Source: Raillietiella orientalis
Lineage: Eukaryota
Reading direction: 5' to 3'
Assembly (NCBI GenBank): GCA_036172245.1
Contig: JAYWIR010000002.1
Location: forward strand, 4,402,001 to 4,466,000
DNA: 64,000 bases
The position numbers were made by a program, and so were the translations under genes. Position 1 is the stretch's first letter. Every line of letters starts with the position of its first letter. The notes below the pieces were generated by a model that had not been told where the DNA came from, searched no databases, and worked only from the letters and a program-made list of their open reading frames with translations. Below are positions 4,090-62,611 of this stretch, in pieces.

Positions 4090-4181
4090 GCTCCCAAGAA
4101 TATTGCTATATGATAGTGAATATGTGCATCTTTTTATCCATAAATACAAATAATCAAAGAAAAAATTATAATAATAGCATC

Positions 4182-29500: not shown

Positions 29501-32500
29501 GTAATCATAGCAGGTGTAGAGCCAAACATCAGAAAAGGAATACTAATTTCATATGAAAACCAGGGAAAAATTCGTTTCACAACATGCTCAAAGGCAGAAC
29601 ATATCAGCCGAAATTGCTCATTTGCTAGAGTCAATTGTAGATAAAAATGCCGCAACAGTTTGTGAAAGTCTTCATTAAAATGTCCAACAGATTGATATGT
29701 TAGAGAAGACATAATTTCAAGGCTGGCAGGTCTAATTCCTTGTATATGGTCCAGCAGATCAGTCAGCAACCGACTGCAAATATTTTGTAAATCTGTATTG
29801 TCTGTGGAATGTTTGCCACTACTACTGGGACAATGTAATAATTCAAATTCAGGTTCTGTAAGCAACAAATTAATAATGCGGATTATTCCATTTTGACGAG
29901 CGGAATTTAAAGCCTTCCTCCAAACAGTTGCTTTCTTATTTGAAACCTGGCAAACTTGGCAAATATATTTTATGGTTTCTGGCAAAGCAATGAATATGTG
30001 ATAATCTTCCTCTGTTAGCTGCTCACAGGAAGTATGGATCCATTCAAAACAACAATTGCATTGTATCATCTGATTTCAAATAAGAAAAATGACTAATCAA
30101 ATGCTCTTACCTGAACATCGAAATCTTCATCTGCATAACAACAATGACAGACAGGACAGACATTGCCTTTCATCTGCAATTTTTCACACGCTGAACAAAG
30201 CCTTGACTTGAAAAAAACATTGCTTCTTCCACAGCTATTACACTTGTCACACTGTGGGCACAGCTAGAAAAAACTTTGTAATTGTCTTCATGATCTTAAG
30301 ACAAACTAACCCAAATTGAAGATGCATGATTAAAACTGCTATAAGAAAGGCAATGTTCATGAAAAGTCTGAAGGCACTGATAACACTGCAATGTTGGTGC
30401 TGAATGTCCACAAACATGACAAACTTGGCAATGGTGGCAAACAAATGTTCCAGTACGTTCAAATCTCAATATCACATTTGCCTCCTGTTGTTGCATACAA
30501 TATTGATGAAATGGCTCAGCACAAACGAAGCAGTAATGCAACTGATAAAATAAGTAATGGAATATTATGACCAATGCATAACTTTGCTTACATTTTTTCC
30601 AGAAGTACCACAAAGAAGGCAAAGGTCACACTGTGCTTTGGAATCCAAAATACAGATACCATCATTTTCAACTGAAGCAGTGTTTATGTCTATTGCTCTG
30701 ACAGGTGCATTTTGGTCATACCAGTTGCATACTTGTTTTGATTTTTGAGAATTTATAAATGCTTGTGAATAACCAGATAAATGGAATTCATTATGCTGAA
30801 AAAAAAAAAAAAAAAAATCAAATACATAGATTCATGAAATGAAGCATCTTCCACAATATTTTAAAATGTTTTATATTAAGAAAAAAAAAAAAAAAACGGT
30901 ATTGCTCGGAAAAAACAAAAACATTTAGTCTGACAATATTTCATCACCAGGTATGACTACTACTCAAAACACTTATTTATACTTTCAGGTAATGTTTGAA
31001 ATCACAATACTTATAATTTCAGTTTTCCCTATGTACATAATCAGAATACTAAACAAAACTTTGAGCAGAGGTCAACTACTCACTTAGACTGCCAATCAAA
31101 TTGTGTGATGGCTCCTCAGCTTTAAGCCACATATAAAAAGGCTGAAGGGTGCTCGCAAAGGGCAAGTTACACAGAGGATGGGAATGTAAGCTTAGAGATA
31201 TTGGTGAATCTGAAATAGAGACAGTTTATTGACTCTACTTTTAGATTTGTTTGTTCTAGGCTGAAAACAAATGCAAGCAGAGGTCCATTGTCACGTGCTA
31301 CTCAGTCTTAAATAACTGTTAGGTAACTCATTTTCTCTACTAGTTTTAACAAAAGTCTTTAAAAGAGTACTTTAAGTACATGGTGATACTGCTTTGTTAT
31401 TGAGTTTTGACCACAGACTTGCCCCTGCTGCACCCAAACAGACCTCAATATGTGCCAATAAATTATCAATGTAACAAATTCAACATATGAGTATATTTAA
31501 TGATATATTAACTTCAGTAACATTTTTTATCAATGTGATAATTGCAGACCTCTGCTCCTAGATATTTTTTTCTTTTTTTAAAAACAAGCACTTACTGAAT
31601 TATTGGGAATAAATACAGATACATGTCCAGGCTTTTTCAAAGACTTAGGAGCTACAATACGAGGAGAAATGCACTTCTGCTTTCTAAAAATAACCAGATA
31701 GAGATTATGCTGCACAGTAAAATATTGCATACATACAGGCAAAATCTCTTTTTTTTAAGAAGAATACCTTGTTCTTTTCTTGCATTATTGCGAAGACATA
31801 TTGCACACTTTCCACACTCTGGTGCTTTGCAGCCACAACACTGATAACAACGTCGCATTAATTTGGGTTCACTAGATTCAGTCGATTTTGCACTTGGGGA
31901 ATGAGGCATCTCATCACAACTGTGATTTTCCAATGCAGTAGGAATGGGAGACACAGCAGGTATCACATTTTGAAATTTATTAGTGACTTCACCATTGGCT
32001 GGAAAAGTGGCAAGAGGTAAAAGCATGGCTTCAGCTTGTGTACGGTTAACATGCTTTACTCGAGCCATATGGATTGCATTTTTCGATACTCTTTTCTTAG
32101 ATGCTTTTTTGTTTTTAGGTCGATGACATTGGTCATTTTTGGTTTTATGAAACATTTCACGCTGTCCTTGTTGCAAACAATGAAAAGCTTTTCGTTTAAT
32201 GGAATTGGCAGTTTTCACAGTATGCTGCTGTTGGGTTAATTCCAATAGGAATGAACCTTTATATGATCCACTTGCACCACTTTGTCGTTTGAGCTTGGAA
32301 GCATTCTCGTATGTTTTCACTACTTTTGCATCATCCCCTGTTTGACTAGAACAATACACAAATGAATTTTGCTGTGGATCTGTGTTCTCTGGAGCATCTC
32401 CACTGTTCAATGATGGGAGCAATGAATGGAAAATTTGAAAGTGTTTTTGAGGAATTCGGACACATACAGCTAACACTTGCTTGATAAGACAAGCATGACA

Positions 32501-34296
32501 ACGGTGCTTGGTAGAAAGAGAGCAAGGACCTGTAACAAAATTAAAGATAATAATTAGAAAGGATAGTTTTACCTTCTTTGTTAAGGCAAACGCACTGTGT
32601 ACGATTCTTTTTTAAATTACGAATTGTGCGAATGCAATATGAGCACATAAGAACACCATATTTGCGGTAGTTTTCAATACGAACATAGAGTACTTCTCGC
32701 TGACAGATGGAACAAATTAACTGTCCAATACAATCCTTTCCTAAAATTTAAACATTAAGATAACATCATATTTCCTGAAAACAACGCACGTTTTCTCTTT
32801 GTTGATACATTACTTTGCAAATCCTTATTGGATTCAAAAGAGCAGCTCCTTTTTCTACTTGAATTCCATCCATTTTCCAACATATTTAGATGTGGAATTT
32901 TTACATCTGTAACAATGTTACCTAGCTTAGTAGTTTCCTTTATATTAACAATGTAATGGTCTTCTAATTCTGATTCTGATGATTCTTGAAGTTGAACATC
33001 CAGGGTTGACAAACCAGCTTCTTTTTCAAATACATCTACATTGGAAACACTATTTTCTTCTAGCACTGTACTATTCACAGTGGAGTCTTTCAGTGGCTGC
33101 ACATTAGGGACTCCATCAATTATTGTTATCCTAAATTTTCCATCCACTGATTCATATACTTGATCTTTAGAAGACATCTCAATTGGTAAGGGTTCCTCTG
33201 ACAACAAGCAATCCTGAGTACCATTTGTGTGCAAATTTTCATAACCCACTTTAGGTAAACTGGCAACATCTAAATCATAAGTTTGCTCTACAGAGTTTGA
33301 TTCCTTTTTATCCGTTTTTTCCATATGAAATTCTATGCTGCAGTTTTTTGGTTCATCCACTAAATCACTACAAGTTTCAGGGACAGCCATTCTTTTTGCT
33401 GTATACATTTTGCAATTATCTTGAAGATTCATTTTCATCTTGTAAGATGGCTTCCATGCTCGTTTCCCAGTTACTATTTTCGATGCAAACCAATTTCGAC
33501 TGAAAAACTTCCTTTCTTCAAGATGGCTTACTTTTCCTCTTGCTATTTGATTCTGAGCTGTCTTTACAACTTTCCTTGTTTTCCTCAATTTGCTACATAC
33601 TGGCATTTTTACAATTAACTTTTGTTTATTTTTAACTTCCGTTTGATCTGAATTAATGAAAGCATCTGATGCTAGTTTTCCTTCTGATTCTTGCATGTTG
33701 TTTGGCTTTTTAGTTTTCTGAAACTTTATCCTGGGTTCAGCAGATTTCTTAAAAAAATATTTTCCTTTAGCTTGATTTTCATCTGTAATAAATAGTGGAT
33801 GTTTTTTTTTTTCGGAACTAAGTTTATATACTTTTATATATCCAGACAATGCTTTTGGATGCTTTTCATGCTTTGATATATGATGTAACCTCACTGTGGG
33901 TCTAAATATTTTCCAAACATCTGAATTTCTTTCTGCATTGTAACTATTTATATTTGAAAGGTTCACATTTACATTATTAGGAAACACAGAATGTTTTTCA
34001 ATATAACCTTCTATTAAAGATATGAGCAAAGATATTTGTTCAAGCACAGCTACATGTGTTTTTGTTTCTTTATCAAGAAAACCTATGAATTCCACCTAAA
34101 TAATAGATAGCAGATTGAAATTATTACTTCCAATTTGATTTTTTTTTCAACTTACTTCTTCCTTGTGCGTACTCGGAGAACTAATGGATCCACATTGAGA
34201 TGGAAACGGTTGTTTTGAATCACCACACACATAATCTTCAGATTCGCAGTTTTCTTTTTCTTTAACATCAGACCACTGAGAATCTGTGAGGGCCAT
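26562..34296 (-). CDS. trx: Trithorax / MLL1-2 (KMT2A/B) histone H3K4 methyltransferase; 10 coding exons, ~2200 aa
   Basis: In order: FIGF motif; nuclear-receptor-like Zn finger (CSIC...KYGVLMCSYC...CHACL); CXXC-like finger; PHD1-3 (CLLCGTSG..YCFVCAEPFH; KGNVCPVC..Y.DEDFDVQMIQC); atypical bromo region ending IFPWF; DHTY; extended PHD (DKRFCILC...GRLI..WIHANCVLWS); FYRN; QVD/G taspase site; FYRC; GCAR Win motif; SET/post-SET (SDIHGRGLF...MVIEYAG...GIGCYMFRID...NAARFINHSCDPNC...EELTYDYKF...CNCLSRKCRKYMN). Confidence 0.97.
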
Positions 34297-38498: not shown

Positions 38499-41400
38499 AT
38501 GATGATTCATCGAATAAGTTGTGTGGCTCGATTGGGTTATTCCTCTATAGAGCCGAATTTTGGTGGTGCATTGTCGTTTCTCAAAAGTGGTTCCTATAAA
38601 AGTTATTGCATTTTAAAATATTCAGATCGGTAAGAAAATTTGCATGTTTTAATGCATTGAAGTTTTACGTTTGCCGACTTATTTTTGTGTCAAATCCGAA
38701 ATCGCACTTCATCCCAGTTGAAATCTTTGGTTTCATATGATTACCAGTTATTCTTGGTGTCATTTTTTTCAATTCTTTAATAACCATGAGGTTTTGTTTG
38801 GAAAGGCATAATTAAAATCTCCATGAGATTCGAATAAACATTCTGTGATTATTTTCATTTCCTTAGTTGCTACTCTTGATTAGCTCGGTACATTTTGGAG
38901 ATTAGTAGAGTAAGCCTTTAAGTATTTGTTGCGTCTGTTTAGAAAATTGTTCTTGATAAAAACATTACTTTCGACGTAGAGCGGGTGGCATTTCGAAAAG
39001 TTGAGGAGTAGTTTCTGAGTTCTCTGAAATTGAAGTTGAATAGCTAGTTTTATGTATAATAAAGTGAATTAAATTGCGATGAAATATGAATTAAAACTTT
39101 AATGATTTTTTTGTTGCATGAATCCTTAAGACATGAAATGCTCTTGGCATATCCAGAGATTGATCTGGATATAATATCCGTTTGAAGTCCATTTTGAGGG
39201 ATAAATTTCCACGATAAAATAAATTGAAATATCAGTTTCTACGATAAACATGATTTTATAAGAATATGAAAGATGTACAGGTAAAGTTTAGTGCAATTAC
39301 GTTTCACGTCCTTGTTTCTATTGCACGTAACTAATTCCATTTAGTACTTAGAAAAGGGCACATAAGAAATTAGAGGGGTGAAGGAAAATTAATATTAATT
39401 ATTTTCTTCATTCGTATCCACGAAAGGTTTCATCAAAATAATCTCAGCGAGGATTTTTAAATTTAGTAATAATGCACACAGTAAAACTTAAGCAATGGAC
39501 AGTATCATACAATAAGAATTATTGTACTAAATGTGAATAAAAAACTATATATATATATACGTATTTATAAGTGCCTATGTCTAGTTTAACATAATAGTTG
39601 CTTATTCTTTCCAACATGAATTATTTTATTTTAATGTTTCAAAACAACAAAAAAGGGAAAAGCATTTGTAACTAAGTTGAAAAGTTTTGAAACCTCATTT
39701 GTTTTGTTTCCATTGTATACTAATCTTGTGTTTATGGAAGTGGATTATTGTATATAGATCTGAGTTGCCTGTTTTTCACATAAATTGTGAAAAAGAGAAA
39801 ACTAATATTTATTTTTAAGTTGTTAAAAATTATGGGTCCAGTAAAGAGAAAAGTAGAAAGCTCATAATTCCTTTTGTAATGTGAGACTAATTCCTAAAGA
39901 TTTGTGTTTCTATCAGTTTGAGCTTTAAGTGTAAGTGGTTGGAATAAATAATAAGCCTACACAATTGAAATCAAGTTGAAACTTCAACTGAAATTTCTCA
40001 ATTTATTATAAATGTATAATTCCCTTCTAGTTAACTGGGTGAATGTTTTGAGATGTTCTATAGGTTGCTTCGATTTCAATATTTTTCATTGCATTTAGAT
40101 TTTTCAATTGAATTCTCAATATAAGTTGTTGAAATTCTATTGCCCTGATCAATTTTAGGACTATTTTTTAATTTCCTAATTACATGCCGAGAAACTTTGT
40201 TAGCCTAGTTGACTATTTGGCATGTTTTTTTTGTCTGTGATTTTTGATCATGGAAAATAATAGTTCCATTATTTCTTTGTGTTTCCTTTGTTTGAATAAT
40301 TTGAATTAGCAAGTCATTTAATGTTTATAATGGGCGTTAGTTTATCATTTGCAATTTTTATATTGAGAGAATATGTTGTCTGTATATGTGGAAATGACTT
40401 TTAATCAGGTAATCTGCCTTTGTGAGTGCAGTAAATCACAGAATGTGTGAGTGAATTTTAAAATAAAATTAAAAACATTTTAACTTTAATAAGTGGTTGG
40501 ATTACTGGGAATAAACTTTGATTTATGTCATAGATGGTCGTAGGTAATTAAGAATTAAAATAAATTAATCATTCCAAGAAGCTGTTTTATTTATATTGAT
40601 TGTATGCCTATAGGTTGACTGATTTAAGTAGTGATTTATTGAATCATATGAATTCCATGTGATATGTGCTTGTATATGCACATATTTGTATGTGAATATA
40701 TGTGTGTGTCTACATATGTGTATAAGCTCATATATGGACATTTGTATCCATTTAATGTGAGTTGCATCTTTGAAATGTGGAATTTTAATATTTTCAGGTT
40801 TTCATCATTAGATTCCAAGGCAGCTCCAGATGCATGTCAAAAATCTGATGCATCAGTTTCCTCATATTCCCATCAAATAAAGGTGTTCAAGATGGAAAAT
40901 GACTTTATCCAACTTGACCTGAGCATTCGCAAATTTGGTAGAGTAAAGAAAAAGGATGTGGAAAAGATTCTTTCTCAAATATCATCTGCTGGTATCTAGT
41001 TTTTTGTTTTCATTTTTTTATGTATAATAGGTCTATAGAATTAAATCCAGATTAATTTTTATGATACTGCAGTAAGCTTTGAGTGTTAATGAATGTTTGA
41101 AAGGGAAATGATAATGTTCTCATTCAGCTATGGGATGGACAGTGTGTGCAATCCAATCATTAAGTGTTCCAATTGAAAAGTGAAATGTAGCAAACATTTA
41201 AGTATGGGTGATTTTTCTCATTAAGAAATACAAGCAGATCTCTAAGCAACATTAGTGATTTCTTACTGTTCTGTTCTCTTACTGCAAAGGATGCTTGATA
41301 CTTCATGAGAGTATGAAGTTTCATATAAGAACTGATTTATCTTTGGAATAATCAGTTAGGATTTCTTATTAAATTCCTCTTCTTCAAAAAGTAATCAGAC

Positions 41401-44400
41401 TCTTTTGACAAATTTGCAAATTGTGCACTTATACTGTCATAGAATCCAAAAACAGAAATGGTAGAAGTTTGCAATCTTGTATTTTCTTTAATAATAGTAA
41501 TATCTTGATTGTTTTGAAGTTTTGCATTTAATTTGCTTAGTATCAGTTCAGTATTTTTGTTTTATTTACTTCTTTATATGCTGAAATTTTGTGTACGGCT
41601 CCCTTTTAACACCTTTTCATGTGAAAAGCTATCCAGATTCTCACGCACCAAAAAAAAATCTTTAATGCTAAATCATTTTTCTTGAGAAATTTTTTAGTTT
41701 TCAAATTCAATTTTTCCAATTTTAATTTGCTTTAGTGTATGAGATGAACTTTTTTGATTGAAATTGTGTAATGCATATCGTAGTTTCTTTACTAAATGTT
41801 TGGATTATAGTGTTTCGTTGTTAAAGCTTATTTGCAATTCACAAGCTGCAGAATTAAGGTTTTGTTTAATAAACATTGGTTGAATACACAATTTATGTAT
41901 ATACCTTTGATATCTTGAAATTATTTTTATTTGTTTGCTTCATGCATTGAGTGTTTTATTCCATTTTCACAGATATTCCTATTCAAAATGTTCTTAAGTA
42001 ATTTGTTTCATTAAAATGCAATTTTGTGCTTGTCCAATTTTGAGTTAGTGTAGAACGGATTTCACATCACTACATATTAGTTAATAGTCAATATTTTCAC
42101 CAAAGAAATTTTTTTTGGTGTTTTTAAATTGAAAGCTGGATTTTAAATTTTGCTTTTCTATTTGTTTGGGGTTTTTATTATTCCTTTAGATAACTTTATC
42201 GACTTCTTTACCATGAATTAATAAAATGTGTCTCAGATGCTTTGACTAGTACTCAATGCTTATTTCTAATCCGATGTGGGTTGTACCTCCCAGAGGAACA
42301 TCCAGATGCTTGCATAGAACTGATTAATGAGATTTTCCGTAAATTTGAAGAATATGGTATGTTAAAATGAGTAACAGTATTTTCAGACATGGATAGATAC
42401 TTTTAGATGTTCCTTTGGATATTAGCCATTATAATGCATTGTTAAGTGTATATTTAGAAAATGAGTTTGCATTTTCTCCTACTGAATTCCTTTCAATGCT
42501 CGAAAGCAAATCATTGCAGCCAAATAGAGTTACATATCAATACTTAATTTCAAGATATTGCTATAATGGTGATCTAGAAAATGCCACTAAAATACTGCAA
42601 TACATGAAAGAAAAAGAGCTTCCCATTAATGCGCAAGTATTTAACGCTCTAATAATAGGGCATTCCAGAGCCAAGTATGTACCATGCAATTTTTTTCCTA
42701 TTTTTATTGTACCTATAGTGAATTGGAAAATGCAGAGAACATTATTCAAATTATGAGAGATGCAAAGCTAGAACCTACAGCAGATACATATTGTCATCTT
42801 CTGTGTGCCTATGCTGAAAAAGGATTAATTCAGAAATTACTTTCATTGTTAAAGGAATGCCAAAACAATGAAGTCTTTTTGCAAAATAAACATCTTATGC
42901 AGATTGTTATACGTTTGGCTAGATCTGGATTTTCTGATCACATTGGCAGTGTAAATAATTGATTTCTTTTCATAGTTTCAAATGCAATTTCAGATTAGCG
43001 AATTTTTCCAAAGAAAGACAGGGTTTCACCAAGAATGTACTAATCATATTCTACAGCTTTTGAGCTTTAAACTTCATAATTCTGCATTTGAATTGCTTTT
43101 AATATTTCTTGGAAGCAACATCAGTGATCCTCGGCAATCAGCGGATTTTTTTTTTTCTTACTTAGCTGAAACAGATCTGGTAAGTATTCTGTGATGTAAA
43201 GCTATGTCTGCAGATATTGCTAAGGATAATTCTGCTGAAAAATCTTACAGTTTTCACATTAATAATTTACTTAATTAGCTGCTACTCAAAATAAAATGAA
43301 GTTCTGTTACCTGTAATCTGCATGTTTCATATGTCAGTGAATGCTCATAAATGCCATAGCAGAAACTTGTCAATTAGAATTTATTTACTTTGCGTCTTTT
43401 AAGCTTGGAAATGTGTTAAGGCTGTTTTCTTGAATGTGCATGTGTTTTGTCATTAGTTTTTAAGGTAGCCTTTGTTGAGACTCACCTTGGAACCTTAACT
43501 TAATAATGTATTTAAATGAGTGTTCCTGATTAGGAAATGACTTGAATCATTATTTGCCAAGCACCATGGATATCATTGAGATGAAAAATCGTAGTTCAGT
43601 TTTTATCTAAGTGAGCAAAATTAGAACTGAAGATAGCTTACACCAACCTACACCATGCTAATTACTGTTATGCTCTGTGATTGCAAAATGCCGTAAAAAT
43701 ATCGAAATATCTTAGAAAATAGCTAGAAAAATAAAGTGATTCATGTAGCTATCAATAATTATACTGACATATGATGCTTGTAAGTTCTCCTTGAGGTATC
43801 ATATCATATCTGTGTTAAACATCATAGTAATCAGGAACATTAAGGAGATAGAAATGAAAAGAAAGACGTAATTTTTTTTTAGCTTGATAGACTGACTATT
43901 ATCCTAATAATTTTGGTTACTTTGTAGTTTTCATAACTTCATGTAATTTATTGTTGTGTATTTAGTAATGAGTTTATAAATAGAATTGATGTGCATAGAA
44001 AACGGAAATTTGCATTTGCAGAATTTTCGTTTCTTGCAGTTTAGAACTTTTTAAAATTTAAACCAAATCAATGAAGACTTATAAATTGGATACACGTTCT
44101 GTCATGCAAAAGGCAGTTTTTGACTATTCAGCAAAAAATTTTTCTAAAACAAAATTATAATGTGATATGCAAATTAAAAAGATTGTTGTTGGTATTGGAA
44201 ATGGGTGAATATTTGCATCAATACTGTGGATGATTGTGTGTTCACAACTGTTTTTATAGCTGAATTATTGATCATAAAGAAGCGTTTAATGTTAACTATT
44301 TGTTTGACATATTCAGACTTCAAATATTTAATTTTGGTTAATCAGAAAGCTGACTGTTGTCGTTAAGGTTCATCATGAACTGTGTACATTTCGGTTATAA

Positions 44401-47400
44401 GCATAATAACAATATGTTATATTTGTGAATGATCATCATTCTAAAGAATTCAGCAAATAGATCAAGAACTTCGTGTTTGATATTTCAGGGCATTGATAAG
44501 ATTGTTCATTATCATAAAATTCTTAAAGAAAAAAATATTCATCACTATGGCATCCTAAAGAGTTTAGAAACTGCACTAAAACTTCAGAAAACTGATATGG
44601 TGCTTGCATTATTAAAAGCAATTCGGAATGAAGGATTGCCTATTCGTGTGCATTATTTTTGGCCACTGCTAGTGCAATGTGGGAAGCAGGGAGATCAGCA
44701 AAGTATATTCAAAAGGTTATATCAACTTTTAATGTATTTTCCAGAAATACTTTCCTTGCTGAAAATAATGCCCAAATTTTGTGGTCATCCTGTAACTTTT
44801 GACACACTCAAAGATTATGTGATTCCTGCATTGAATGGAACAGCTGGAAGCATTATCCAGGCTTTAGCTACAACAGGGTGTCCTCCCGAATTAATGTATA
44901 CCTCCCTTTTGTACAACCTGATTACAGAATCGCGGATTCGTGAAGCTCTTGAACTTGGTAATAATGCGATTTGATTGCTAACTGTTTCTCCTTTTTGCTT
45001 TCTTTCAGCATCCGATTCATCATCGCAATTCAGATTAGACTTTTTAAAGGCTATACTGTTAAGGAGATTACTAAACTCTCCAGACGCTGATGTTGTGCAG
45101 TTAATAAAGTCCATTGCGAAACATTCTGTTCATGAGCAAAGGAATGTAGAAGAAGAATTATTGCTTGCTGCTGCAAACAGTAGAGAAGTACAAAAGGAAC
45201 CAGATAAGTTGTCTTACATTTTACAGGTAACTTTGTGTGGTCACAAGGAAATATTACATATGTTTTAGCATTATGTGCAAGCGAAAATCCCAATTTCTTT
45301 AGCTGGAATTGAACTTTTAAAAGCAAATTTCACAGAGGAGGTATCCAGTAAATTTGCATCTCTTTTAGAGGTGGTGACATCACCCAATTTGTTAGGGAAC
45401 GAAGTGGAAGAAAATTCTAAATTGCTTTGTGCTGAAGTAAGTGTTCCCATTTTCAGAGATACAGCTCATCTGGACTGTTTCAGCAAATAGCATTTCAAGA
45501 AAGTGAAGAATCTTATGAAACTTTGCATCAGAAACTCTATGCTGCAGCAATAACTCATGATTTAGATGCATGTAGAAGCATTTATAAAGTAGGACATACA
45601 ATGTATTATCTAACAAATGAAGTGTTTTGCGTTTAGAAAATTAATACACTTGGCTATAGACTTGGTTACGATTTGGCGAAAATGCTAATTGATGTGTTTA
45701 TCCATGGAGACCGTTTTGATGAAGCATGGCAAATTTATTTAAAAGAAAAACTAAAGTTCGATTTCTCATTGATGCTTAATCATTGGTTGCAGCTTTTTTG
45801 TCTGTGTATTGAAAAAGGACATTTAAAATGTAAATTAAGAAGGTTTTGTTTTGTTTTCGAAGTTATAAGTTATCATTCAGGTGCTGTTCGTTTGTTGAAC
45901 GATTTAGCTGTTAAAAATGCAAATTCCAATTTAAAGGTGAATGCTGACAACTTGCTGGCATATGTTGCTAAGAAAGGGGGTATCCATCTCCTTGAGAAGA
46001 CGTTTGATAAATTTGAACAGTTAAATTTAATTAAGCCTAGTAATGCATTTCTCGCTCCTATCATTGAAGCCTATTTAGTAAAGTAATTGTATGGTAATGA
46101 GAGGTGAATTTGTGATTGTTTTCTGACTTTAGCAACCAAGTAGACACAGCAATTTCCAAGTATCAGCATCTTGTCAGAACTTATCATGTAACTCCTGGGA
46201 GAAGGATACTTATGCAACATTTGATAAAAGCAGGTGATGAAGAAAAACTCCAAAGTGTTGTTTCTTTAACCATGGAAGTGAATGGAGAATCGGATACGCT
46301 CACCGACTTGCTTTTCTATTTTATTGAATGTGGTCACATAAAAAAAGCCTGTAAGATCCTACAGATGCGTGGCTTCAGAGCTCAGAACCAAAGAATCATG
46401 GCCAAATGCAGTCATTACGTGGAAACTGGCAAGTTGAAAGAATTAGAACAGCTTGTAGTTATAACCAAAGATTTAATTGATGTTGATCGTCATATGATGT
46501 ATGAATATTTGCTGAATGCATATTGTAAGTTTATTTGAAAAGTAAATATTTCAGTGACTGAATTCTTTAGGTCAGCAAAGAAATGTTGACAAAGCATTGA
46601 ACGTTTGGGTATCTTTGCAAGAAGAAAATTTGGAACCTTCTGTTGAGATTTTACAGCGTCTTGCAGCTTTCTTGCAAAAGGAAAAACATCCTATTCCTTT
46701 TAACATACCAAGGGGAAAGTCACATCAACAATATGCTGTGCCTTCAAAGTACAAATCTCTGGGCAGTGTTAAAGATTCGAATCGTAAGAGTAGTATCGAT
46801 ATTAATGAAGAATTGAAGACACAGCAAAAGCCTTTAAACATCAGAAAAAGTTGTTATCAAGTTGAGAAACTCATAGAAAGTGGAAATGTGCATGAAGCTG
46901 TCAGTTTAACTTGTGAATTGCTTCATAAAAATACTTTTCTGGTTCCCCGTATCGTTCGATACCTGATAGATATCTTGTCATCTTCGGGTGACATTTCTTC
47001 ATTGGAACTTTTGGAAGGACTAATGGATCAAAGCATGAAAACCTTGACTTCCCTTACAGACAAACTATGTATTGCATATGACAAAGCAGGAAGAGCAAGA
47101 GACTACATGGAGTTGTTGAGAAACAAAGGTTTGGAAACATTACAAGCACCTTTTCCAAAAGTGGGGATCTTGTCACTGCTCCAGAATAATCCCGATTTGG
47201 AAGAAAACTGTAAGTGCATAAGTGTTTATCATTCCCAACCTGTTTAACTTAAGAGATAAACTTAAATGCTTAATAGGAAGCCATTAATGTATGTTTCTAA
47301 ACAAAAAATCTGATTGTATTTAAACATGCTAAAAGTATTTTGTGCATTCTGCTATCAGATAGGATGTTTGCACATGACATGACAATCAAGGAGTTTATGG

Positions 47401-47883
47401 ATCCCATTAATACTTTATGGATTCATCAGATGATTAATGAGAGATACAGTGAAGCTGAAACTACATTTGAGAATTACTTGAGTAAAGCACCCACTGTGTT
47501 CTTTGACACCATTCTGAAGAAGGCTCAACAGGCTGATAATCCAGAAATGGCTCTGAAGTGCTTACATATATTAAAGCAACACCCTTTTCCACAGAATGTG
47601 AATGATATTTACAGTTGCGTGGTGGATATTTATGGTCAGTTTTTTATAATTTTTATTAATTGTGTTACATACTTTTTGTTCAGTTGAGAGAAAAGATATC
47701 GACTCAGGTTTGCAAATTTTATCTACTGCACTAAGTCATGAAATTCGACTGGAATCCTTGAACAGAAGTTCATTAGAAAACTTCAGAAAGTTAGTAGAGT
47801 CTTCAGGCCAAGCATTTCCATACAACTTGAATGAAAGATCATATGTTACAGGCCTTGCTAAAGCCTCTTTGATAACAATGTGA
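38499..47883 (+). CDS. LRPPRC: Leucine-rich PPR motif-containing protein, mitochondrial (LRPPRC / bicoid stability factor); ~17 exons
   Basis: Exon 38499-38629 encodes an Arg/Ser-rich mitochondrial-presequence-like N-terminus that joins in phase to 40798. Characteristic segments: [89 protein letters not shown], and PPR-like helices throughout. Confidence 0.93.
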
Positions 47884-48644: not shown

Positions 48645-51600
48645 TTATTTGACTCTGTCTATTCTTGAAAAATACAATGGTCCATAATTATTGGGTAAAA
48701 AAGGTAGTACCAAACTGCCATACTTGACATCATTGGAAGCAAACTGAAATATTGATTGCAATGGCTGCAAAGCAAGACTTAGGTCTCTAAAATTTACTTT
48801 ATAAGAAAACACGATCTTTTCTTAATTCTTTACCTGACAACAAATTCTGCTTTACTTTCTTTATGCATGATTTCCAATGCACGATACACAACTCCATCAT
48901 TCTGAATTGGGGATAAGGAGCATGTAGAATAAACTACGCTTCCTCCAGAACATACAGCTTGCAATGCAGCACTAAGATGGATAACAAAACATGCTAAAAA
49001 AACTCATAAAATACCAAAGAAGCTTAGTTTGTTGCTCTGGAATTCGTATTCTTTCCTTGATACGGTGGATGCGAAACATATTACTCTCATCTTTGCAAGC
49101 ACTTAGACGATCACTGGTACAGGGGACATCCACAAGGATCTACAATATCTTTTTAAGTCACTTGGAACCTTACTTTTTCATAACTTTGTTCCTCAGGCCA
49201 CAGTGTGCCATCTGAACATGTGAAACAAACATCTGGACAACCAGAATGTGCTGAACAGTACTTTTTCCACATTTTTTTCATATAGTTCAATCGGGATTGG
49301 GAAACATCATTAAGAACCATTAAACCTGCAAAGTTTTAGCCAGCAGATTTCCACACTTACTTGGTAATAGTGTTTGCATAATTATTAGGGCTTTCCCTCC
49401 AGGAGCAGCACACAAGTCCAAGATTCTATCTTGATATTCTATGTTAAGAGCCAGAACTGGGAGTATGCTAGCTCCATTCATCAAATAATAATCTAATACA
49501 CATGAAACATTGATTTCTTTAAGTTGAATTCTCTGATGCAGTCTCAATCTACTCTGCTTTTTTCAAGAACATTTTTTAAAAAGCAATGTTCAAATACTTT
49601 GGTTATGAAAGATTTCATATTGTTCACAAGCCTTCTACATTTCTATTTGAAAGAACATTTATGAACAATAATCATTTGGAAGCATTCTTAAACATTGCTA
49701 TGATCTTAGACTAACTTATCCACTTAAAAACTGAGCAATTCTTTGGACAATACTGCCAAGTTTCTTCATCCAGTTACAAGCAATGGTACTGTTTTAAAAA
49801 CTCCTTGCTACAGCTTAGCTCTTATGCATTATTTTCATATGTATTGCAATCATTAAATTCACTGTTTCACCGTTTGCTCTATCAACTAAACTACAACTGG
49901 TGTTTCATAAAAAATCCTAGATGTGAAAATGAAAAGACTACAGTACCTATCATTTATTATCAACTGTTTTCATTAAGAGAATAATGACAATGTAGAGCTC
50001 AAGACAAACAAAACTATGTGTATGGAATTAACTCTTGATAAATAAATTTTACTGATTCCATGCATTCTCATTTCTTTGTAGGTAGTATAATTTTCCCTTA
50101 TCTTAGCGCTAATCCCAAATTCATTATGTATACCTTTGAAATCATTATGTATACCTTTGAAATCACTGGCATTAATGCAAAGTTATCCAAGTAATTCTAT
50201 TAGATACAGACAATGGCAACAGGATACTTCAAAATTTCATACATGTGCATTTTGAATAAGCATATATTAGCTCAATAAGCATTTATTAGCTCAACTTAAA
50301 AGCAAAATAATGACGGTCTTGAAAGAACAAATCAATTATCAACAAATATCAACTATATGTTCATAAAATACAATACTGAAGGTCTTGAAACTTTCAAGTG
50401 GCTAATAGTACAGCAACAGATATAACTGATGTTGAATGCAAAAAAGTCTGACAGTGTATAAAGCTGATCTTTTTAAATTTTGCAAATGCTCTTAGACGTA
50501 TCAGAAAAATTTGTAACTTATATTACAATAATAACAGACCACTTTCAGTATGTCTTGAAGCTCTGGGTGATTCAAAGACAAAAGAATCTACTTTGCAATC
50601 ATGATGTAATAAACCTACTGGACAAAAATATTGAAAAAATTCCTTTATCATACTCACTATTTAGTTGTGGGTCAGTCTTACTGGAACACGGATAAGGAAA
50701 CGAGCTGATATCACCTCTCATAAAACAATATAATTGCACGTTTTTAGGAAAATCAAACTTTTCCAAAGATGTACATTTGATGGCAAAATCTTCATTCTCC
50801 TTACTATATTTAAAATAATCTGATTCATGAACCCAATCTTCACATCCTTGCAGATCAGCAGAAGGCATATAATCTGCTAATGCTGCATGATGTTCTATGC
50901 TGTCACTATCGATAAATCTATTAGAACTACTAGATAGATACTGTATTCTAAATTTATCAATTTCGGAGTTATCAACTGGTGGAATATCAGGTAGGTGATA
51001 CTGAAAATCTTCAGGCACACTGTCTTCGCTTAATTTGGGCAATTTTGCTTCTCCAGGATGGGGCAAGCTATCTTTAGACTGCTTCTGTTGTTCATTGTAA
51101 TAAAATGCCCTTAAGTCAAAGCATCCAAGGGACTAATGAAATTAATACAAGTAAATGAAATAAACTTTACCTCCAATTTTTGGCAAGCATCTTCTACACA
51201 AAATCTGTTAACAACAGCTATATATTTGCTTTTACAAAGGAGCGCTAATCTTATTGAGGGCCAAATGGAGCCATAAAATGAAGCATAATATTTGTCAAAA
51301 TACTCCAAGGCATAATCACAACCTCTCTTTTTCTGGATAAAAAAAAGTAAACAAAGAGTAAACATATGTTTCCACATCATGGAATTTCCAAATGCATCAG
51401 ACAAAATAAATAATTATTGTCATCCAAAAACAAACAGATAAGTTTCAACTACAATAGAAAACAAACTATACTACTTGAGCTATCTTAATGCTTACTTCAA
51501 ATCCCCAATTTAGCAAAAAAGGCAATCAGGATTTTCTTCCCAACTTTTGCAAAGAATGCCCATGAAAATCTGAATTTTACGAATTACCTATATGACTAAC

Positions 51601-52056
51601 CAATATCAAATAATCAGAGTGAAGAATGAAATTATAGAATCAGCATTACAAAATTAGTTTATCATACATTAATACATGCGAAACGACAAATTTTTACAGT
51701 TATTTAATCCTTTAAAATGCAATCAGTCAAAATGATTTCATTCAAATTATTGCGACACCTATGATCGTCATCAATGCTGTTCATGGTATGCACTGAGCAC
51801 TGTCATTCAATTTAACAGGTATTTACCAACAGCTGAACTGATGTAAACGAAATGGAACTGCAATCTTGAGGCAATTATGTACTTTTATGAATATAAACGA
51901 GAAATTCCTTATTCTTATATTTACTTCAAATAGGATCGCACAAAATTTTTCTGGATTAGCTCTTACCTTGGAAACTTTATTGGCAACATTTGCAAACTTG
52001 CGGGAGAAAAGACACGCACACAATCTCCTGGAAGCTCCAAGGGCATAAGTCCTCAT
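48645..52056 (-). CDS. NSUN4: NSUN4 mitochondrial rRNA m5C methyltransferase; 8 exons
   Basis: Mitochondrial-presequence-like MRTYALGASRRL...; ALEYFDKYY...WPSIRLALL..KY; YYLMNGASILPVLAL; motif I DLCAAPGGK; motif IV ILVDVPCTSDR; motif VI VVYSTCSLSPIQNDGVV; C-terminal LVLPFLPNNYGPLYF. Confidence 0.94.
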
Positions 52057-53490: not shown

Positions 53491-56400
53491 CCTTTACTAA
53501 ATCAAACGCATGTCAAATTAATTAGTGCAAATAATATCATTAGCATTTAATACCGCAACTTGGTCGTATGTTGCCTTCGTTCATTTCACATTTACCTTTC
53601 TGGCCATTAAGTTTATCCGTACAGAACCGGGAAAAATCCTCCACCTGTAGCTGCAAGCTATCCACGTTATCAGCCTCAGTCTGTGAAGCGATGACCACCC
53701 TCCACGTCTCTTCGTACGTGCCATGTGCAAAAGAGGTTTTGTGAAAATCATTGCTCCTGTAAATTTCATACCTCTTTGCTGTCTTGGAAGAGCCGTACGC
53801 ACTCTCAGCTCGTTAGTAGTTGCCGGCTGCTAAGACAGTTTCCTGCAGATGTCAGGTGCCTCTTTCCTTGAAACGTTCGGCAAACTGATTGAATCGAAGA
53901 CGGGAGAATTTGGCGGAACACTCCCACTGGCATGGGAGCGTCCCTTGGTCTTTTGATTCCAAGGAACGGACTGCAGTCATTTATGGAAGCTGGTAAAGAC
54001 GAGTGAAGATTCCACTTTGTTAATCAAGCTGCATGTGAGCGAGTCAAGCGTTGAGAAAGAAATCGGAAGACGGATAACTGGACCCCTTTGGTCTGTGGAT
54101 CCGATGGCCTTCCATTCAAGATTGGAGCGATTTCAGCGTCTGCAACAAGTTGGCAAACGGTGAGGAATGGTCCTTTGTGATTTAATGATAATGAACAGCG
54201 TGCAGTGCTCTGGAAAGCGCAAACAAAAATTCATTAGAGCTGCGCCAAAAAGGAGAAGAGGAAGAAAAAGAAAGGCGCGAAGATCTCGAGGGTCAGAAAA
54301 AACTCAAACTGAACTTCTTTCGAGATAGGTTCTTCAAAGCATGTCTCACCTAATGGCTACCTCTCTACTTCCTTTGTCTTCCATGGTGCCCTGCATGCAT
54401 AGCTCTCAATTCTCCAAGAAGCCAAGCCTCATTTGTTTCTGCGACGATGTCCTCAGAGAGTCAGTCAAAGGAACTGAAGGATGCTTCTATCCCCTGCTAT
54501 CTGGGGTGCGACAATATGCTTATCTTGGGGGCATCATTCGAATCCCCCCTGTCGTTTGCAGTTCTAGATTAGCTCCAGAATCGACCCTCTTGTGGTTTTC
54601 GTCTTCCCACGCTTTGGTGGCAACAGCCCACGCAGATCTATCGGGTAGAGCCATAGTGAAGAGAATCACGGATCGAGCCGTAGAGCCAGAAAATGGCGAC
54701 TGCAGGTTGGGAACGTAAGAGTCAAGAACCGTTACTCACTTTCTTCACTGTAGTGTTCCCACTTGGATGAGCGTTTCGACTTGAAGGTGAATGACAGTGA
54801 GTGACTCAGGGATTCTGAGCGATGTCTTGGCTTTGTCCTCGACACCTCCCGCGAGGCAAGGAGTCCAGCTTCTGCTGGGACGAAACAAAATGCTGTGAGG
54901 ATCGTAGCTACTCAGAGTGGAACTTGATAGAGCGACACGAGGGCGACATGCGTTCATCTGTTCTCTGAGCCGAACAAGTCTTCTGAGCCGGAAGTATCTG
55001 ACGCCAATGTTGAGAATTTGTCTCTTGTTGAGTTGAGGGCTTCATACATCGCGTACCATTTCCGTTTTGGCGACCGTGTGGCTCTCCGGTCTCTCCTCGC
55101 GTGGCACCAAGCGTTGCGGGTTCCAATCCCCACACGAAGGAGCGACGTCGAGAATGGGGGGTACGTCATGGGTTTCGAGAGTCCCCTCGCCCCCGCAGGA
55201 TGGCACTGGTTAGCCGACAGACTTCGGGTGCGGTGACACTGGTTGACACCCGGGCACGGCGGAGCGTTTATTTATAAAAAAATAAACATACACGTCTGTG
55301 GTAGGACGTTTGATCCTGCCATATTACTTATAACTACGAGAAGGAATCTACCGGGAACTGGCATGCAGACCAGCAGGGTTCGCCTCGGCAGCACAGGGGG
55401 AGGGGATACAAACAAAAAGAAAGAAAGAAAGAAAACAAAAAACATAGAGTAAAAAAATAGGGGGATTCGGGAAGGTATCACTGTGTTCTGGAGGGTGTCC
55501 TCTGCATCCTCCTAAAGATGCCGGCAAGTAAGGATGAGGTACAGCATTGGTGGAAGCCGGAAACCCCCGGATGTCCCCGTTGAGTGGCCGGGACTGGAAT
55601 TTGACTCTCTGGGGTCCTTCCACGAATTGAGGAGCCCATTGGGTTCCCCTCCGGCTGCGAAAATGGAGCCGTGCCATGGAGCTGGTTGATACATCCCTCT
55701 GGGGGCCGACTCTCCGCAGTGTCAAAAGCGCTCTGTTCCCTTCGGGGAGTGCCCTTCAAGAGAAATTTGGTAGCGTCCCACTCCCGGGGTTCTCTTCAGA
55801 GGAGGAGGAAACTGGAAGGAGTGGTCTCCCGGAATGGAGGGTCTGCTCCTTTGCACAACCGGAGGGGGAACTGCCCACTCCTTGATTCCTGGAATGACGC
55901 GCAGGTCAACTCCCCATTGTCCCGGCCACTCATCGGGGGCATCCGGTTTGAGCCGCTACCATTTCCACCGCACCCGAATGAATAGAGGCCAACCAGCATC
56001 ATCTCGCGGGAGGAACTCGAACCAACGAAGCACCCCCATTTCTCGGTGTCGATTCTTTCCGAGTATTCGAACCCACGACTCTTGGTGGTGCCTTGCGCGG
56101 AGACCGCAGCAGCCACAAGGCCTTCAGATCGTGAACATGCCCCTCAAAGACCTTGCCGGCTCCTGATTCCCGAAGCTTCTGTGTTAATGATTCGCAGGAT
56201 ACAGTGCTTAACGCATTAGCGAAATCGCTGTAGTTTGGGAGGATGCGTGCCTTTCTACTGTCCGGATACCGCCAATAGTGAGCGAGAATTCCCCAGTGAA
56301 GTCAGCAGACGGAAATCTGTGCTTGCAGTATTTTCTTTCAGGCCACATTTTTTACTGAACAAAGAATTCGTCGTAAGAATAGTCAGGCTGGATCTTCATG

Positions 56401-59400
56401 GTCTTCCTGCCTTCGGTGTGGGATCTCAGCCAAAAGGCCGAGGAGAGCGGTGCTCGAGGATGCAGTGCACATCGCATCCTTCCTCTGCGAGCTGTAGTGT
56501 TTGCAAAGCATCCATTTGAAAATTCTGCTGTGGCTCCCGGGGCGCCGCTGCAGTCCCGGACCGGGCAGGCACCGGTCTGCCAGTTCTAATTCACATCAAG
56601 TGGAGAAGAGTAAAACTTGGGTTAGGAAATTGCTTTGTTTGTTTAATCCCTTCAGCGATCCACTGACGTAGGGGACGCACTGTTGCGAACAGGTGTGCCG
56701 ATTCACTGACGTAGGCGACAGGCCTCAAATATCTCAAGTTTACCTCTGCCTGCATTCCTCAACATCACACATTCCGCTGATCAGTCACTTACAGTACACC
56801 TCAAACTTTCGCCCCTGTTGTTTTTCATAGGACCCCACAACCGCCACAAGACGTATCGGCCCCCAAAACTCACTTTTATCTCTGAAACGCATCAATCGAT
56901 TGAAAATTAAAAGCCTTTCTCCTCCAGGAAATTTAAGAACCGAGAGGAAGCCTGGAAACGATTTGTAAATCCTCTCCATAAGCGCTGAACCCGTGACTGC
57001 ATTTCGGCTGTTGCTCGACAGCAAAGCTTTTCCAGCATCCGGTCCGTCCCATATTGCTGCGTCTCCGCTTCTCGTTCTCGGGCGGGGAGCGCTCTGATGC
57101 GAACCCGAAACCTCTCGAAAGTTGCGGGCTGACCTGCTTTCTGGCTCCGCTGTTATCCATTCTTCCTAACAGTCAGAGCACTTCTGCTCTTACGCTGCAT
57201 CCTTGGTCATCCGTTGCTCACGCTCGATCGTTCCGCCATCTTAGGCAACGAAGCCAGGCCCGTACGGGCCGCATGACTTTTCTTTGCAAATGTTTGTTTG
57301 TTCCTTCGAAAATATTTGCAGATCTCATTTTCAAGGGATCTTCTTGAACATCTTCGGCACATTCCCTCTGCCCCCCATCCTTCCCCGAAGTTCCAGTTCC
57401 CCAAAGCTTCCATCATGAGATCCCATTAAAGGTGGAGGCTCATATTTTTACTGAACGATGAAGTGCGGGGGCGTTGGTGCATCTCCCACCTCCACCCGCG
57501 AATGCATTGCTAGAGGTCAGTGACATAGCATTTTGCCCTGGATTGGGGACCGCGGGGCCACGATCGGAAGCACGCCTCACGCACACGAGGGTTGCGAGCT
57601 CTCAGATTGCGAAGTGGGTTGCATGCCGATGCTCAAAAGAGCATGCTGCGAGTAATGGAGCAGATGCTGTAACGGAGATGCAGTCAGCATGAGCCTTAGA
57701 TTATCTGGAAAGCGCTGTAGCATTTTTTCTGCCTCGCTCGCGCGTTGTCTGCGTCTTTTATCTTTCTACGCAACGTGGCAGCTTCCAGATGCTCCTTTGC
57801 AATTCCTGTTGGTGGATCTTGCACTTCGGTACATTCTAATGCGGATTTATCGGCGATGCTGAAGAGTTCCTGCGAGGCATCTGCGATTCCTGTCGACGGT
57901 TGCTATGAGTCCGTTCGAGATGAGACCGAGGTCATCGGTCGAAGAGGGAGGAGTTCCTGCTCGCGGCAGTGTTCGGGCGTTCCAGACAGAGCAAGATCAT
58001 CCAATGACACCTCACCATCTGATCACCTGGTACTTTGGACGGATTCCATCCGACCGTTTTGGTTACTCCCGCCAATGAGCAAACGGCTCCTCCTTCATTC
58101 CCGCCAATGAGCGGTTCCCTTGCGGGTTGTTCCCACCGGAGAAGGAACGAGTAGTGGCCTCCTCCAAGGGGTCCCTCGAGAGAGAATAAGGGGGTGTTTC
58201 CCTTCGAAGTTCCCTTGGGAGTCAACCAGGATGAGAGGGTTCCTTTCGGGTTTCCCTACCAAGCACAAGCACGCCATGCAACGAACCCTTTGCATGGCTG
58301 CTAGCCATGGGAAGAGAAATCATCCTTGTCGGGATGGCTAACCAAACTGAAGCAGTCGAGATGAGTGACGCTTCTCATCGCTAATCCAAGATCAGAGTAA
58401 AGCCTCAAGGCCACCCCACTCCTTTGCACGCGCTGGTCAGAACCCCACGCTTGCGGGGTAACACGCCTTGGACGCGTTCAACTCCAAGCTTTGGGAACAG
58501 CACTTGCGAAAAGACCGAACTCAAAGTTCTCAAAGGGTGAGGGAGCCTGGGACGCAGGAAGAGAGACAGAATTGCTCCTTGTTGGAGCAATACGTGGCAT
58601 CGGATACGCAGTGATGCCATAAGAAATACATGTAATTGTGGTTACTGGACCACAGTTGTGTGTGTGAATCGAACGAACTGTGCGCGCAAAGACGTTGTGA
58701 AATGTCGTGAAAGACTCGGCGACGCTGCAGAAACGACGTGCCTTTCGTTTTATTCCAGAGTGTTCGGACAGTTCGTGTTTGGAACATTCGTCGTAGCAAA
58801 GAGTATTCGTCCCTCCCCCCCCCATTTTGTAATAATCATTTCGACATACAGATGCAATGCTAGGTAATTTTTTCCGCGCAGAAACTGGTGTGCAGCTCCC
58901 AGATGTGCTTCATGCATTTGCTCAGGATTTTTTTTTTTTTTTTTTAAAGTCGAAATTGTAAATTTAATCATTTTTTAAAATGAGCTTGCACGTGCCATTT
59001 CCTCGAAATTAGCTGGACGAAATGAAGCTCAGTCATCCGAACAGCAGATAATCAGAAACAAGGTTGAAGCTAAAAAAATTTTTTTTGCTCTGAAACCAAA
59101 ATACAAGTCATTATTACTATTAAGGCTGTAATGCAATCCAAACAGAAGTATGTAATAAGATTAGGCATCGTTATCTCTACATAGCGAGCTTCATCACTAT
59201 TGCAAGGAGGAGGAGATCGGTACCAAAAGAATTCTCAAGAGTTCCTCCTCCTAAGGATCCGAAATATCGAAAGGTACGTGCGAAAAAAAGGGTTAAGTAA
59301 AACGAGCAATTGTACCATAAAACGCCATTGCTAACTTCATCATTGATTTTTAATATGGAGCAGCTAAATGTTATAATTTGTTATAATCATAGAAGATTAT

Positions 59401-61496: not shown

Positions 61497-62537
61497 GCTC
61501 TGACTTTTGAACTTTTGTAATGACCGATTTGTATCCATTGACTTTTGGTTGCTTAACCTCTTTGTCCGTTTGATGTAAGCAATCTTAGCAGACTGGATAG
61601 AAAACCTGTTTTTGTGTGATTGTACCATGTCGATAGGAAACCAGAGAATCCGTCGGTAAGCTAAATGGGTTGAAACGGAAATGGAACAAGAGGACTAAAG
61701 TGCAAACAGTCAAGCAAACCGGAATAGACATTCCGAAATCCATGGACTATCGAAAATTAGGTTATGTGACCCACGTCAAGGATCAAAAATTCTGCTCTGC
61801 CTGCTGGGCGTTCAGTACTGTAGTTTTATTTTCTCACATTTTGCCGTTCCAATTACTGATTCTATTTTAGATTGGCTCGTTGGAGGGAGCATACTACAAA
61901 AAAACAGGAGAACTTTTACCGTTGAGTGAGCAGCAGCTGATAGACTGTGCTAAAGATTGGGACAATTCGGGCTGCAAAGGTGGTTCAATGAGTTCAGCTT
62001 TCGAATACATAATAGACAACGGAGGAGTGTGTACAGAGGAATCGTATCCATATACTGGCTGTGTAACCATGACGTGGACGGTATTTCATGATTTATGAAT
62101 TTGTCTTTTTTTTGTAGGATAAAAAGTGTCGTTTCTCAAACCAGAGTTTGGGAGCGACCATGACGGATTTTGATTACGTAAATTGCAGGAACGAAAGAGA
62201 ACTGCAAAAAGCTCTCGTTCTCTACGGACCGATCTCTGTTGCCATAGATGCCAGTCACGATTCTTTTCTTTTTTATTCATCTGGTAGGAGATGAATGACT
62301 GAGTGTACTTACGAGAATATCGATATAGGAATATATTATAACAGGAATTGTTCCAGTGAACATCTTGATCACGCTGCGCTACTTGTGGGATACGATGTAA
62401 GTGATGAAGGTGATGAATTCTGGATCGTTAAAAATTCATACGGAGAGGACTGGGGAGAAGATGGCTACATAAAAATGTCCCGAAATAGGGACAACAATTG
62501 TGGCATCGCATCCGAGGCCATTTTTCCCATTCTATAA
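60062..62537 (+). CDS. Papain-family (C1A) cathepsin L-like cysteine protease preproenzyme; 6 exons
   Basis: Signal exon 60062-60166 ending EWYTFK; I29 propeptide with ERFNIN-like [20 protein letters not shown] and ALNKYADM; mature domain IPKSMDYR...[73 protein letters not shown]. Catalytic Cys, His and Asn are present. Confidence 0.95.
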
Positions 62538-62611
62538 TTTTGTGGCGTATTTGGCAAACCACATTTATTCATTGTGTGTATGAACAAATGGATTTTCATC
62601 TCTGAAGATAC

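Follow-up and report, generated by a model that had tools for sequence, protein, structure and literature searches.

The NSUN4 locus and its three shortest introns

The window, the stretch of 64,000 nucleotides analysed here, contains genes for a Rag GTPase, an ARID1/Osa protein, a trithorax/MLL-type SET protein, a PPR protein that we take to be LRPPRC-like, the methyltransferase NSUN4, and a papain-family cysteine protease (Table 1). A GC-rich block (GC up to 0.52) at positions 53500–59000, between NSUN4 and the protease, contains many overlapping open reading frames, among which no gene was identified; the block is probably derived from repeats. A search of the 64-kb window against Rfam gave no match.

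The gene identified from its sequence as NSUN4, an RsmB/NOP2 m5C methyltransferase and mitochondrial RNA methyltransferase, is described by an eight-exon model on the minus strand. The removal of seven introns of 634, 38, 1165, 35, 34, 43, and 47 nt leaves an open frame of 471 amino acids. The best PDB match of this protein is to solved NSUN4 chains (E 1.8e-13), and named animal NSUN4 proteins match it too. It contains the S-adenosylmethionine-binding motif I and both cysteine motifs of the methyltransferase, IV and VI. No other close copy was found in the assembly (210.5 Mb, 491 contigs), and the gene is single-copy. Exon 1 probably encodes a mitochondrial presequence. Exon 3 used as a homolog query found nothing among 241 candidates, and the query with exon 4 succeeded. 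The ends of intron 3 are less certain, because the signal-free aligner moved both by 24–44 nt. This intron also contains a tandem duplication of about 20 nt (window positions 50125–50165).

Table 1. Genes of the window and the exon–intron model of NSUN4.
Feature	Position in window	Strand	Basis or remark
Rag GTPase (RagC/D-like)	2700-4100	+	
ARID1/Osa	17300-22100	+	
Trithorax/MLL-type SET protein	26565-34100	-	
PPR protein	40900-47800	+	
NSUN4 exon 1	51967..52056	-	putative start ATG 52056; weakly conserved, start set by frame
NSUN4 intron 1, 634 nt, GT-AG	51333..51966	-	donor and acceptor scores strong
NSUN4 exon 2	51171..51332	-	tblastn to three database proteins
NSUN4 intron 2, 38 nt, GT-AG, phase 0	51133..51170	-	weakest-supported of the three shortest
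NSUN4 exon 3	50658..51132	-	homology and alignment
NSUN4 intron 3, 1165 nt	49493..50657	-	ends set by hand
NSUN4 exon 4, SAM-binding motif I	49361..49492	-	PDB NSUN4 match E 1.8e-13; Pfam PF01189
NSUN4 intron 4, 35 nt, GT-AG, phase 1 (splits Ser codon)	49326..49360	-	position common to other animals
NSUN4 exon 5	49174..49325	-	alignment
NSUN4 intron 5, 34 nt, GT-AG, phase 0	49140..49173	-	directly before DVPC motif
NSUN4 exon 6, motif IV cysteine	49015..49139	-	alignment
NSUN4 intron 6, 43 nt	48972..49014	-	chosen with 5/5 references
NSUN4 exon 7, motif VI cysteine	48834..48971	-	alignment
NSUN4 intron 7, 47 nt	48787..48833	-	chosen with 5/5 references
NSUN4 exon 8, through stop codon	48645..48786	-	ORF and alignment
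Papain-family cysteine protease	61600-62540	+	

A first-pass annotation of the window had called the introns of 34, 35, and 38 nt in this gene. The coordinates of all three proved exact, as did their GT-AG ends and lengths that are not divisible by three. Splicing is also needed to hold the frame, as had been claimed, since the predicted NSUN4 protein is intact only with the introns removed. The GT...AG ends, donors of the U1 type rather than the U12 type, and the restoration of the conserved frame point to U2-type introns.

Five proteins (from a mite, an aphid, an annelid, a bird, and a rodent), taken from the 120 matches listed, were aligned to the DNA by a custom protein-to-DNA aligner with a flat intron cost, no length preference, a 15-nt minimum, and the end dinucleotides as the only signals. 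The 34- and 35-nt introns were each chosen with all five references. The 34-nt junction is free of gaps against every reference, the 35-nt junction against every one except the rodent isoform, in which 13 residues are missing at this point, and the 38-nt junction against all but the aphid protein, which is short at its N-terminus. We also enumerated nearby frame-keeping GT/GC-AG pairs (92, 22, and 98 pairs tried for the 34-, 35-, and 38-nt introns). Each intron ranked first among its frame-keeping alternatives, of which there were 21, 7, and 37, respectively. The runner-up to the 34-nt intron, like that to the 35-nt intron, is even shorter, and any longer choice scores at least 33 and 40 points less, respectively. 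Relative to 112 short introns, the donors of the three lie at the 55th–85th percentile, above the median and not extreme; the 35-nt intron has its donor at the 85th and its acceptor at the 75th percentile.

Eleven unnamed animal proteins appear to read through introns. Ten of them stop aligning at the position of the 35-nt intron, with a codon that fits a phase-1 GT donor, and the eleventh lacks an intron at this position and leaves the alignment at that of the 34-nt intron. Because these intron positions are common to other animals, we read the introns as old ones that have since shrunk. The read-through of the 35-nt intron itself was rejected as a chance alignment to mammalian NSUN4, in which the conserved Asn-Asp is lost and which ends in a stop. 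Protein homology cannot test the exact length of an intron. The three introns nevertheless appear real and well supported, with splicing that is predicted from the DNA.

Intron lengths, splice signals, and spliceosome parts in the genome

Introns outside NSUN4 were called by homology in two samples. The first consisted of 12 dynein heavy-chain regions aligned to the best of 22 long references, drawn from the 150 matches listed. A pass with four references each and no signal scores resulted in 753 distinct calls, of which 221 passed, two of them artefactual, and the shortest genuine intron measured 37 nt. A second pass, with two references and length-neutral signal scores, resulted in 583 calls, 439 common to both, and 362 passing, none below 37 nt. 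The second sample, 19 housekeeping regions with E. coli or paralog proteins as references, provided 99 calls; 32 passed, with the shortest at 39 nt, and the 67 that were dropped included one of 35 nt and two of 37 nt. In the dynein regions, two calls of 22 and 24 nt, made with all four references and absent from the second pass, were rejected as being in reality one 46-nt intron. It is located on the minus strand of contig C13 (around 346300–346350), starts with GT, and must end in TG for the protein to be conserved, so it may have a non-canonical acceptor or contain a one-base error.

The pooled homology-called introns outside NSUN4 number 394, of which 274 are at most 100 nt long. Two of the pooled introns measure 37 nt, 14 are at most 40 nt, and none is below 37 nt; the 10th percentile is 44 nt and the median 59 nt. 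The short-intron mode is 45.5 nt according to a two-component Frechet fit (44.2–47.6 in 40 bootstraps), although the genome-wide value may differ by a few bases because the sample is non-random, comprising two gene classes and conserved flanks only. Kernel modes are 45.4 nt for 129 AT-rich introns, 54.5 nt for 145 GC-rich introns, and 42.2 nt for 29 housekeeping introns. The short introns have a sharp lower floor near 37–39 nt, and those of up to 35 nt account for no more than about 1% of them. Since none of the 274 short introns is below 37 nt, the 34- and 35-nt introns of NSUN4 represent a rare tail of the short mode and not a mid-30s class. The introns sampled show no peak at 33–37 nt of the kind known from flatworms. 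Nor do they include ultra-short animal introns in the sense of Hadjez 2026, which are less than 30 bp long and have the donor reduced to GTa, as no well-supported intron is shorter than 34 nt. Three of the five short introns in NSUN4 are at most 38 nt long, whereas elsewhere this applies to two of 274. The binomial P is 4e-6 (2e-4 at the upper bound), with no correction for the gene having been picked from a whole-genome scan.

The proposal of the first-pass annotation that introns are unusually small holds genome-wide: the length histogram has its mode at about 45 nt, compared with 58.7 nt in Drosophila and 64.2 nt in Daphnia. The range of 41–56 nt that it gave for most other introns agrees with introns read by hand in RagC and cathepsin L and with provisional ab initio predictions for ARID1 and LRPPRC. 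The ab initio finder is noisy, recovering 29–32 of 38 dynein introns, which were in its training set, and 0–2 of the five NSUN4 introns; the lengths that it called peak at 42–50 nt, and the run was excluded from the counts. A possible 36-nt intron in ARID1 (window positions 17490–17525) comes from this run only. Regional GC varies from 0.33 to 0.64 (12 dynein regions and stretches of contigs C2 and C14), and the length of short introns rises with intron GC (Spearman 0.46, 148 introns; modes of about 45 versus 55 nt). Dynein heavy chains are encoded at about 13 loci, which suggests a full axonemal set; the majority are rich in introns, with 26–59 in the aligned parts.

The donors keep the exon AG and the +5 G as usual (53–65%). 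The 66 introns of at most 50 nt show little of a pyrimidine tract at their acceptors; these end in TAG (42%), CAG (39%), or AAG (18%), whereas AAG ends only 6% of the 82 introns of 51–100 nt. The branch motif YTRAY was not enriched in 93 short introns (21 observed versus 24.2 after shuffling), and therefore the branch positions in the three NSUN4 introns are guesses read by eye. No stable RNA structure was found in these three introns (z 0.63, 0.68, and -0.21). The acceptor of C. elegans is strict, whereas the acceptors here are degenerate, and a U12 snRNA is present.

The first-pass annotation had further proposed a spliceosome adapted to unusually small introns. The parts checked give no sign of this: U1, U6, U12, U2AF2, and SF1 look ordinary. 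The survey took in U1, U2, U6, U12, U2AF2, SF1, and SAP30BP. The U1 snRNA is 163 nt long with the usual 5' end, the U6 and U12 snRNAs were found at full length, the U2AF2 pieces include the RS, ULM, RRM, and UHM parts, and domains of SF1 and SAP30BP are present. The two SAP30BP (HCNGP) matches have equal scores and lie inverted, 15 kb apart, on contig C1 (2154108 and 2169683); they are either a recent duplication or an assembly duplicate. One of the 14 G-patch matches resembles SPF45, a label that we assume from its motif; this piece gave no match in a PDB search and only G-patch in Pfam.

A family search and three patterns found no intact U2 gene in the assembly, and such an absence is no proof of loss. 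There are 46 U2 matches in all, and the fragments retain the usual branch-pairing stretch. The four best are 3' parts without the 5' end that share the same start point, one of them at positions 6216406–6216589 of contig C3. The DNA upstream of one U2 match reads as the tail of a reverse transcriptase and restriction-like endonuclease, and the C3 match shares this tail. The truncated copies look like a U2-targeting non-LTR element, presumably of the Utopia kind.

Placement of the organism and comparison with known short introns

The arthropod-like lineage named in the first-pass annotation can be sharpened: judged from COX1, gene order, and GC skew, the DNA very probably comes from Pentastomida, the parasitic crustaceans known as tongue worms. 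On the mitochondrial contig C282 (9.2 kb), trnL2 follows cox1 and thus lies between cox1 and cox2, an order that we take to be a marker of Pancrustacea. The cox2 gene ends at position 2963 and is directly followed by trnD (2964–3025). The plus strand contains 6.7% G and 28.8% C, which corresponds to a GC skew of about -0.62. The six pentastomid mitogenomes described in PMC12202648 have a skew of -0.58 to -0.65 and cox2 followed by trnD, and Table 1 of that paper includes the same location of trnL2 between cox1 and cox2. The top three of the 120 COX1 matches listed are Armillifer armillatus, Linguatula arctica, and A. agkistrodontis (73–74%), followed by insects (69–71%). In a 17-sequence FastTree of COX1, the sequence is sister to the three pentastomids with support of 1.0, and it carries 16 of the 44 residues that separate these from 13 insects. 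The insects were the sole outgroup, with no other crustacean, so that the tree may conceal a position with Branchiura or an effect of long-branch attraction. The mitochondrial order differs from that of Armillifer in the position of trnW and in a second trnL2: trnW lies between trnY and cox1, the duplicated trnL2 flanks an insert of about 450 nt between cox1 and cox2 (C282, 1740–2320), and a tRNA cluster precedes nad3.

The tie between the mitochondrial placement and the contig of the window is indirect, via nuclear copies. COX1 has 54 matches on many contigs, mostly nuclear mitochondrial copies, with identities from 93.5% down to about 65%. The copies on C50 (93.5%) and C33 (79.6%) match the mitochondrial contig, and an old copy on C2 scores 87 with this contig, 77–84 with pentastomids, and 76–82 with insects. 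ARID1 in the ESM Atlas has Arthropoda as its commonest group and indicates nothing finer. A nematode origin was ruled out by the pancrustacean mitochondrial order, the COX1 matches, and about a dozen dynein heavy-chain loci.

The arthropod table of Gotoh 2018 (PMC6157073, supplementary Table S3C), with about 106 rows by our hand count, one of which is a tardigrade, has its lowest short-intron mode in Tribolium, at 47.55 nt. The mode of the present genome equals this Tribolium value (47.6 nt, the lowest published for an arthropod) or falls slightly short of it. The tabulated modes are 58.65 nt for Drosophila melanogaster, 59.43 for Lepeophtheirus, and 64.18 for Daphnia; among nematodes, 43–44 nt for Strongyloides, 43 for Meloidogyne, and 45.87 for C. 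elegans; and among flatworms, 32.58 nt for Schistosoma mansoni, 34.15 for Echinococcus granulosus, and 33.7 for Taenia solium (PMC6157073). The validated minima in Table 4 of Piovesan 2015 (PMC4675715) are 35 bp in Tribolium (nAChRb1), 39 in C. elegans, and 40 in Drosophila. The 34-nt intron is one base under this Tribolium intron, the shortest validated arthropod intron found. The statement in the first-pass annotation that mid-30s introns are known mainly from flatworms and reduced animals agrees with the flatworm modes of 33–34 nt but overlooks the beetle intron.

Tribolium castaneum is also an arthropod; its short-intron mode is almost identical, and one of its GT-AG introns is just as short. 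The genome studied here differs in belonging to a parasite of crustacean lineage, in a mode about 2 nt lower (45.5, with an interval reaching 47.6), in the value of about 42 nt in 29 housekeeping introns, in the one 34-nt intron, and in that its introns are predicted from DNA. Nematodes share the modal size but belong to another phylum. According to Pai 2017, the 3' sites of Drosophila introns of 40–50 nt are weak, and their branch point lies at -14 (PMC5762160). These introns resemble ours in their weak 3' signals and the scant room for a pyrimidine tract; in the fly, however, they are a minority below a 60–70-nt peak and have a detectable branch motif, whereas here 40–50 nt is the peak and no motif is enriched. 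Schistosoma, Echinococcus, Taenia, myxobolids, and Dicyema are likewise endoparasites with shortened introns. In flatworms, and in myxobolids and Dicyema with their introns of 22–27 nt (PMC13644364), the short size is a whole peak, whereas here 34–35 nt is the tail. Hadjez 2026 reports medians of 22–27 bp in myxobolids, which keep canonical U2 and U2AF, and expects further parasitic lineages with shortened introns (PMC13644364). Fukumura 2021 describes an SPF45 route for short human introns with truncated pyrimidine tracts (PMC8363638). The human SPF45/RBM17-dependent introns share their truncated tracts with those studied here, where an SPF45-like G-patch gene and SAP30BP domains are present, but they are at least 56 nt long (PMC8363638). 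No paper on pentastomid intron lengths was found in a literature search that mostly did not reach subscription journals, and a genome paper may already report them.

Explanations for the short introns

We consider it likely that the major (U2-type) spliceosome handles the three introns as ordinary substrates and recognises them by intron definition, at the lower limit of size. The 35-nt intron, and probably also the 34-nt intron, would occupy an old position and have shrunk to approximately the smallest size that can be spliced. Recognition would occur across the intron. The donor would pair well with U1, and the branch adenosine, placed by eye, may lie about 10–15 nt from the AG and 20–29 nt from the donor. 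Such proximity of the branch to the AG would leave almost no pyrimidine tract, as in the Drosophila introns of 40–50 nt. U2AF probably binds weakly, perhaps with assistance from an SPF45-type route. In an endoparasitic crustacean, deletion pressure may have shifted the whole distribution to nematode- or beetle-like values, with 34–35 nt as its tail. We infer the recognition mode, the branch points, and the cause of shrinkage. Several observations run counter to this explanation: the 34- and 35-nt introns are below all 274 short introns called elsewhere, and it accounts for the clustering of introns of at most 38 nt in NSUN4 only as a gene-level correlation. The lack of an enriched branch motif, the donors that are not extreme, the failure to find an intact U2 gene, and the SPF45 label assumed from a motif also weigh against it. 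The three introns alone reveal no new splicing mechanism. They belong to the tail of a known kind of distribution, have a beetle precedent, and occur with an ordinary-looking spliceosome.

The lengths themselves could be artefacts. A loss of bases within an intron keeps the frame, so homology is blind to errors of one or two bases; the introns contain homopolymer runs of 3–5 bases, and one or two additional bases would bring them near the 37-nt floor. The dynein intron ending in TG may be such a base error. However, no frameshift was found in the 34,382 codons of the 12 best dynein alignments and one in all 48 alignments, counts from which the aligner can mask some frameshifts as false tiny introns (20 of 753 calls were at most 33 nt, 16 of them with a single reference). 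At this rate, one gene would hardly have acquired separate errors in three of its introns, and small assembly deletions are therefore a highly improbable cause. It is also improbable, if less so, that the 38-nt call alone is wrong and its donor joins a later AG, for example in an 86-nt intron. Without signal scores, the 38-nt intron was chosen with only one of the five references, the mite protein; four longer choices score within 5 points, it leads by only 4.4 points, and its acceptor reaches only the 20th percentile. Nevertheless, it is the top open-frame choice and gap-free in a multiple alignment, donor scores are negative for three of the four runners-up, and the ab initio run selected it at two of three penalties.

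A functional role for the short introns is doubtful but compatible with the explanation by ordinary U2-type introns. Slow or partial splicing would lead to retention, with a frameshift, early stop, and decay, and would tune the output of NSUN4. Drosophila introns of 40–50 nt splice more slowly (2.7 versus 1.7 min; PMC5762160), a tardigrade database protein stops just past the junction that corresponds to the 35-nt intron, 13 residues directly after this junction are absent from a rodent "isoform X2", and the three shortest introns cluster in one gene. However, both database isoforms are predictions, none of the three introns is structured, and the signals of the 35-nt intron are above average. 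We regard as unlikely a spliceosome altered at the protein level (for example in the U1 snRNP, SF3b, or U2AF) with a lower minimum distance from donor to branch. The mode of 45.5 nt against 59–64 nt in the two tabulated crustaceans, the weak pyrimidine tract, the excess of AAG ends in the shortest introns, and the lack of an enriched branch motif are all consistent with such a change. Against it, the parts checked, a minority of the proteins, look ordinary, the U12 of the minor spliceosome is kept, a free-living beetle attains the same numbers, and myxozoans with introns of 22–27 nt keep canonical U2 and U2AF (PMC13644364).

The most far-reaching reading is a speculation to which we give little probability. 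In it, tongue worms have the shortest intron mode of arthropods (42–46 nt), and no spliced arthropod intron is shorter than their 34-nt intron. They would have arrived at these lengths separately from beetles and nematodes, after a change in the early spliceosome that removed its need for a branch consensus and for a pyrimidine tract but left the minor spliceosome in place. A parasitic crustacean would then join the lineages of convergent intron shrinkage, and the introns of 34–47 nt in one gene would form a natural series for the steric limit. If RNA confirms the more ordinary explanation by U2-type introns at the lower size limit, an endoparasite of crustacean lineage has a mode about 15–20 nt below those of Daphnia and the salmon louse and comparable to those of nematodes and of the most compact beetle among the genomes tabulated. 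Such shortening fits the published guess of further parasitic cases and is far milder than that in myxozoans (PMC13644364). Gene finders that require at least 40 nt or use lengths trained on the fly will mis-annotate this genome. With its five introns of 34–47 nt, NSUN4 is a handy minigene for studying the lower size limit.
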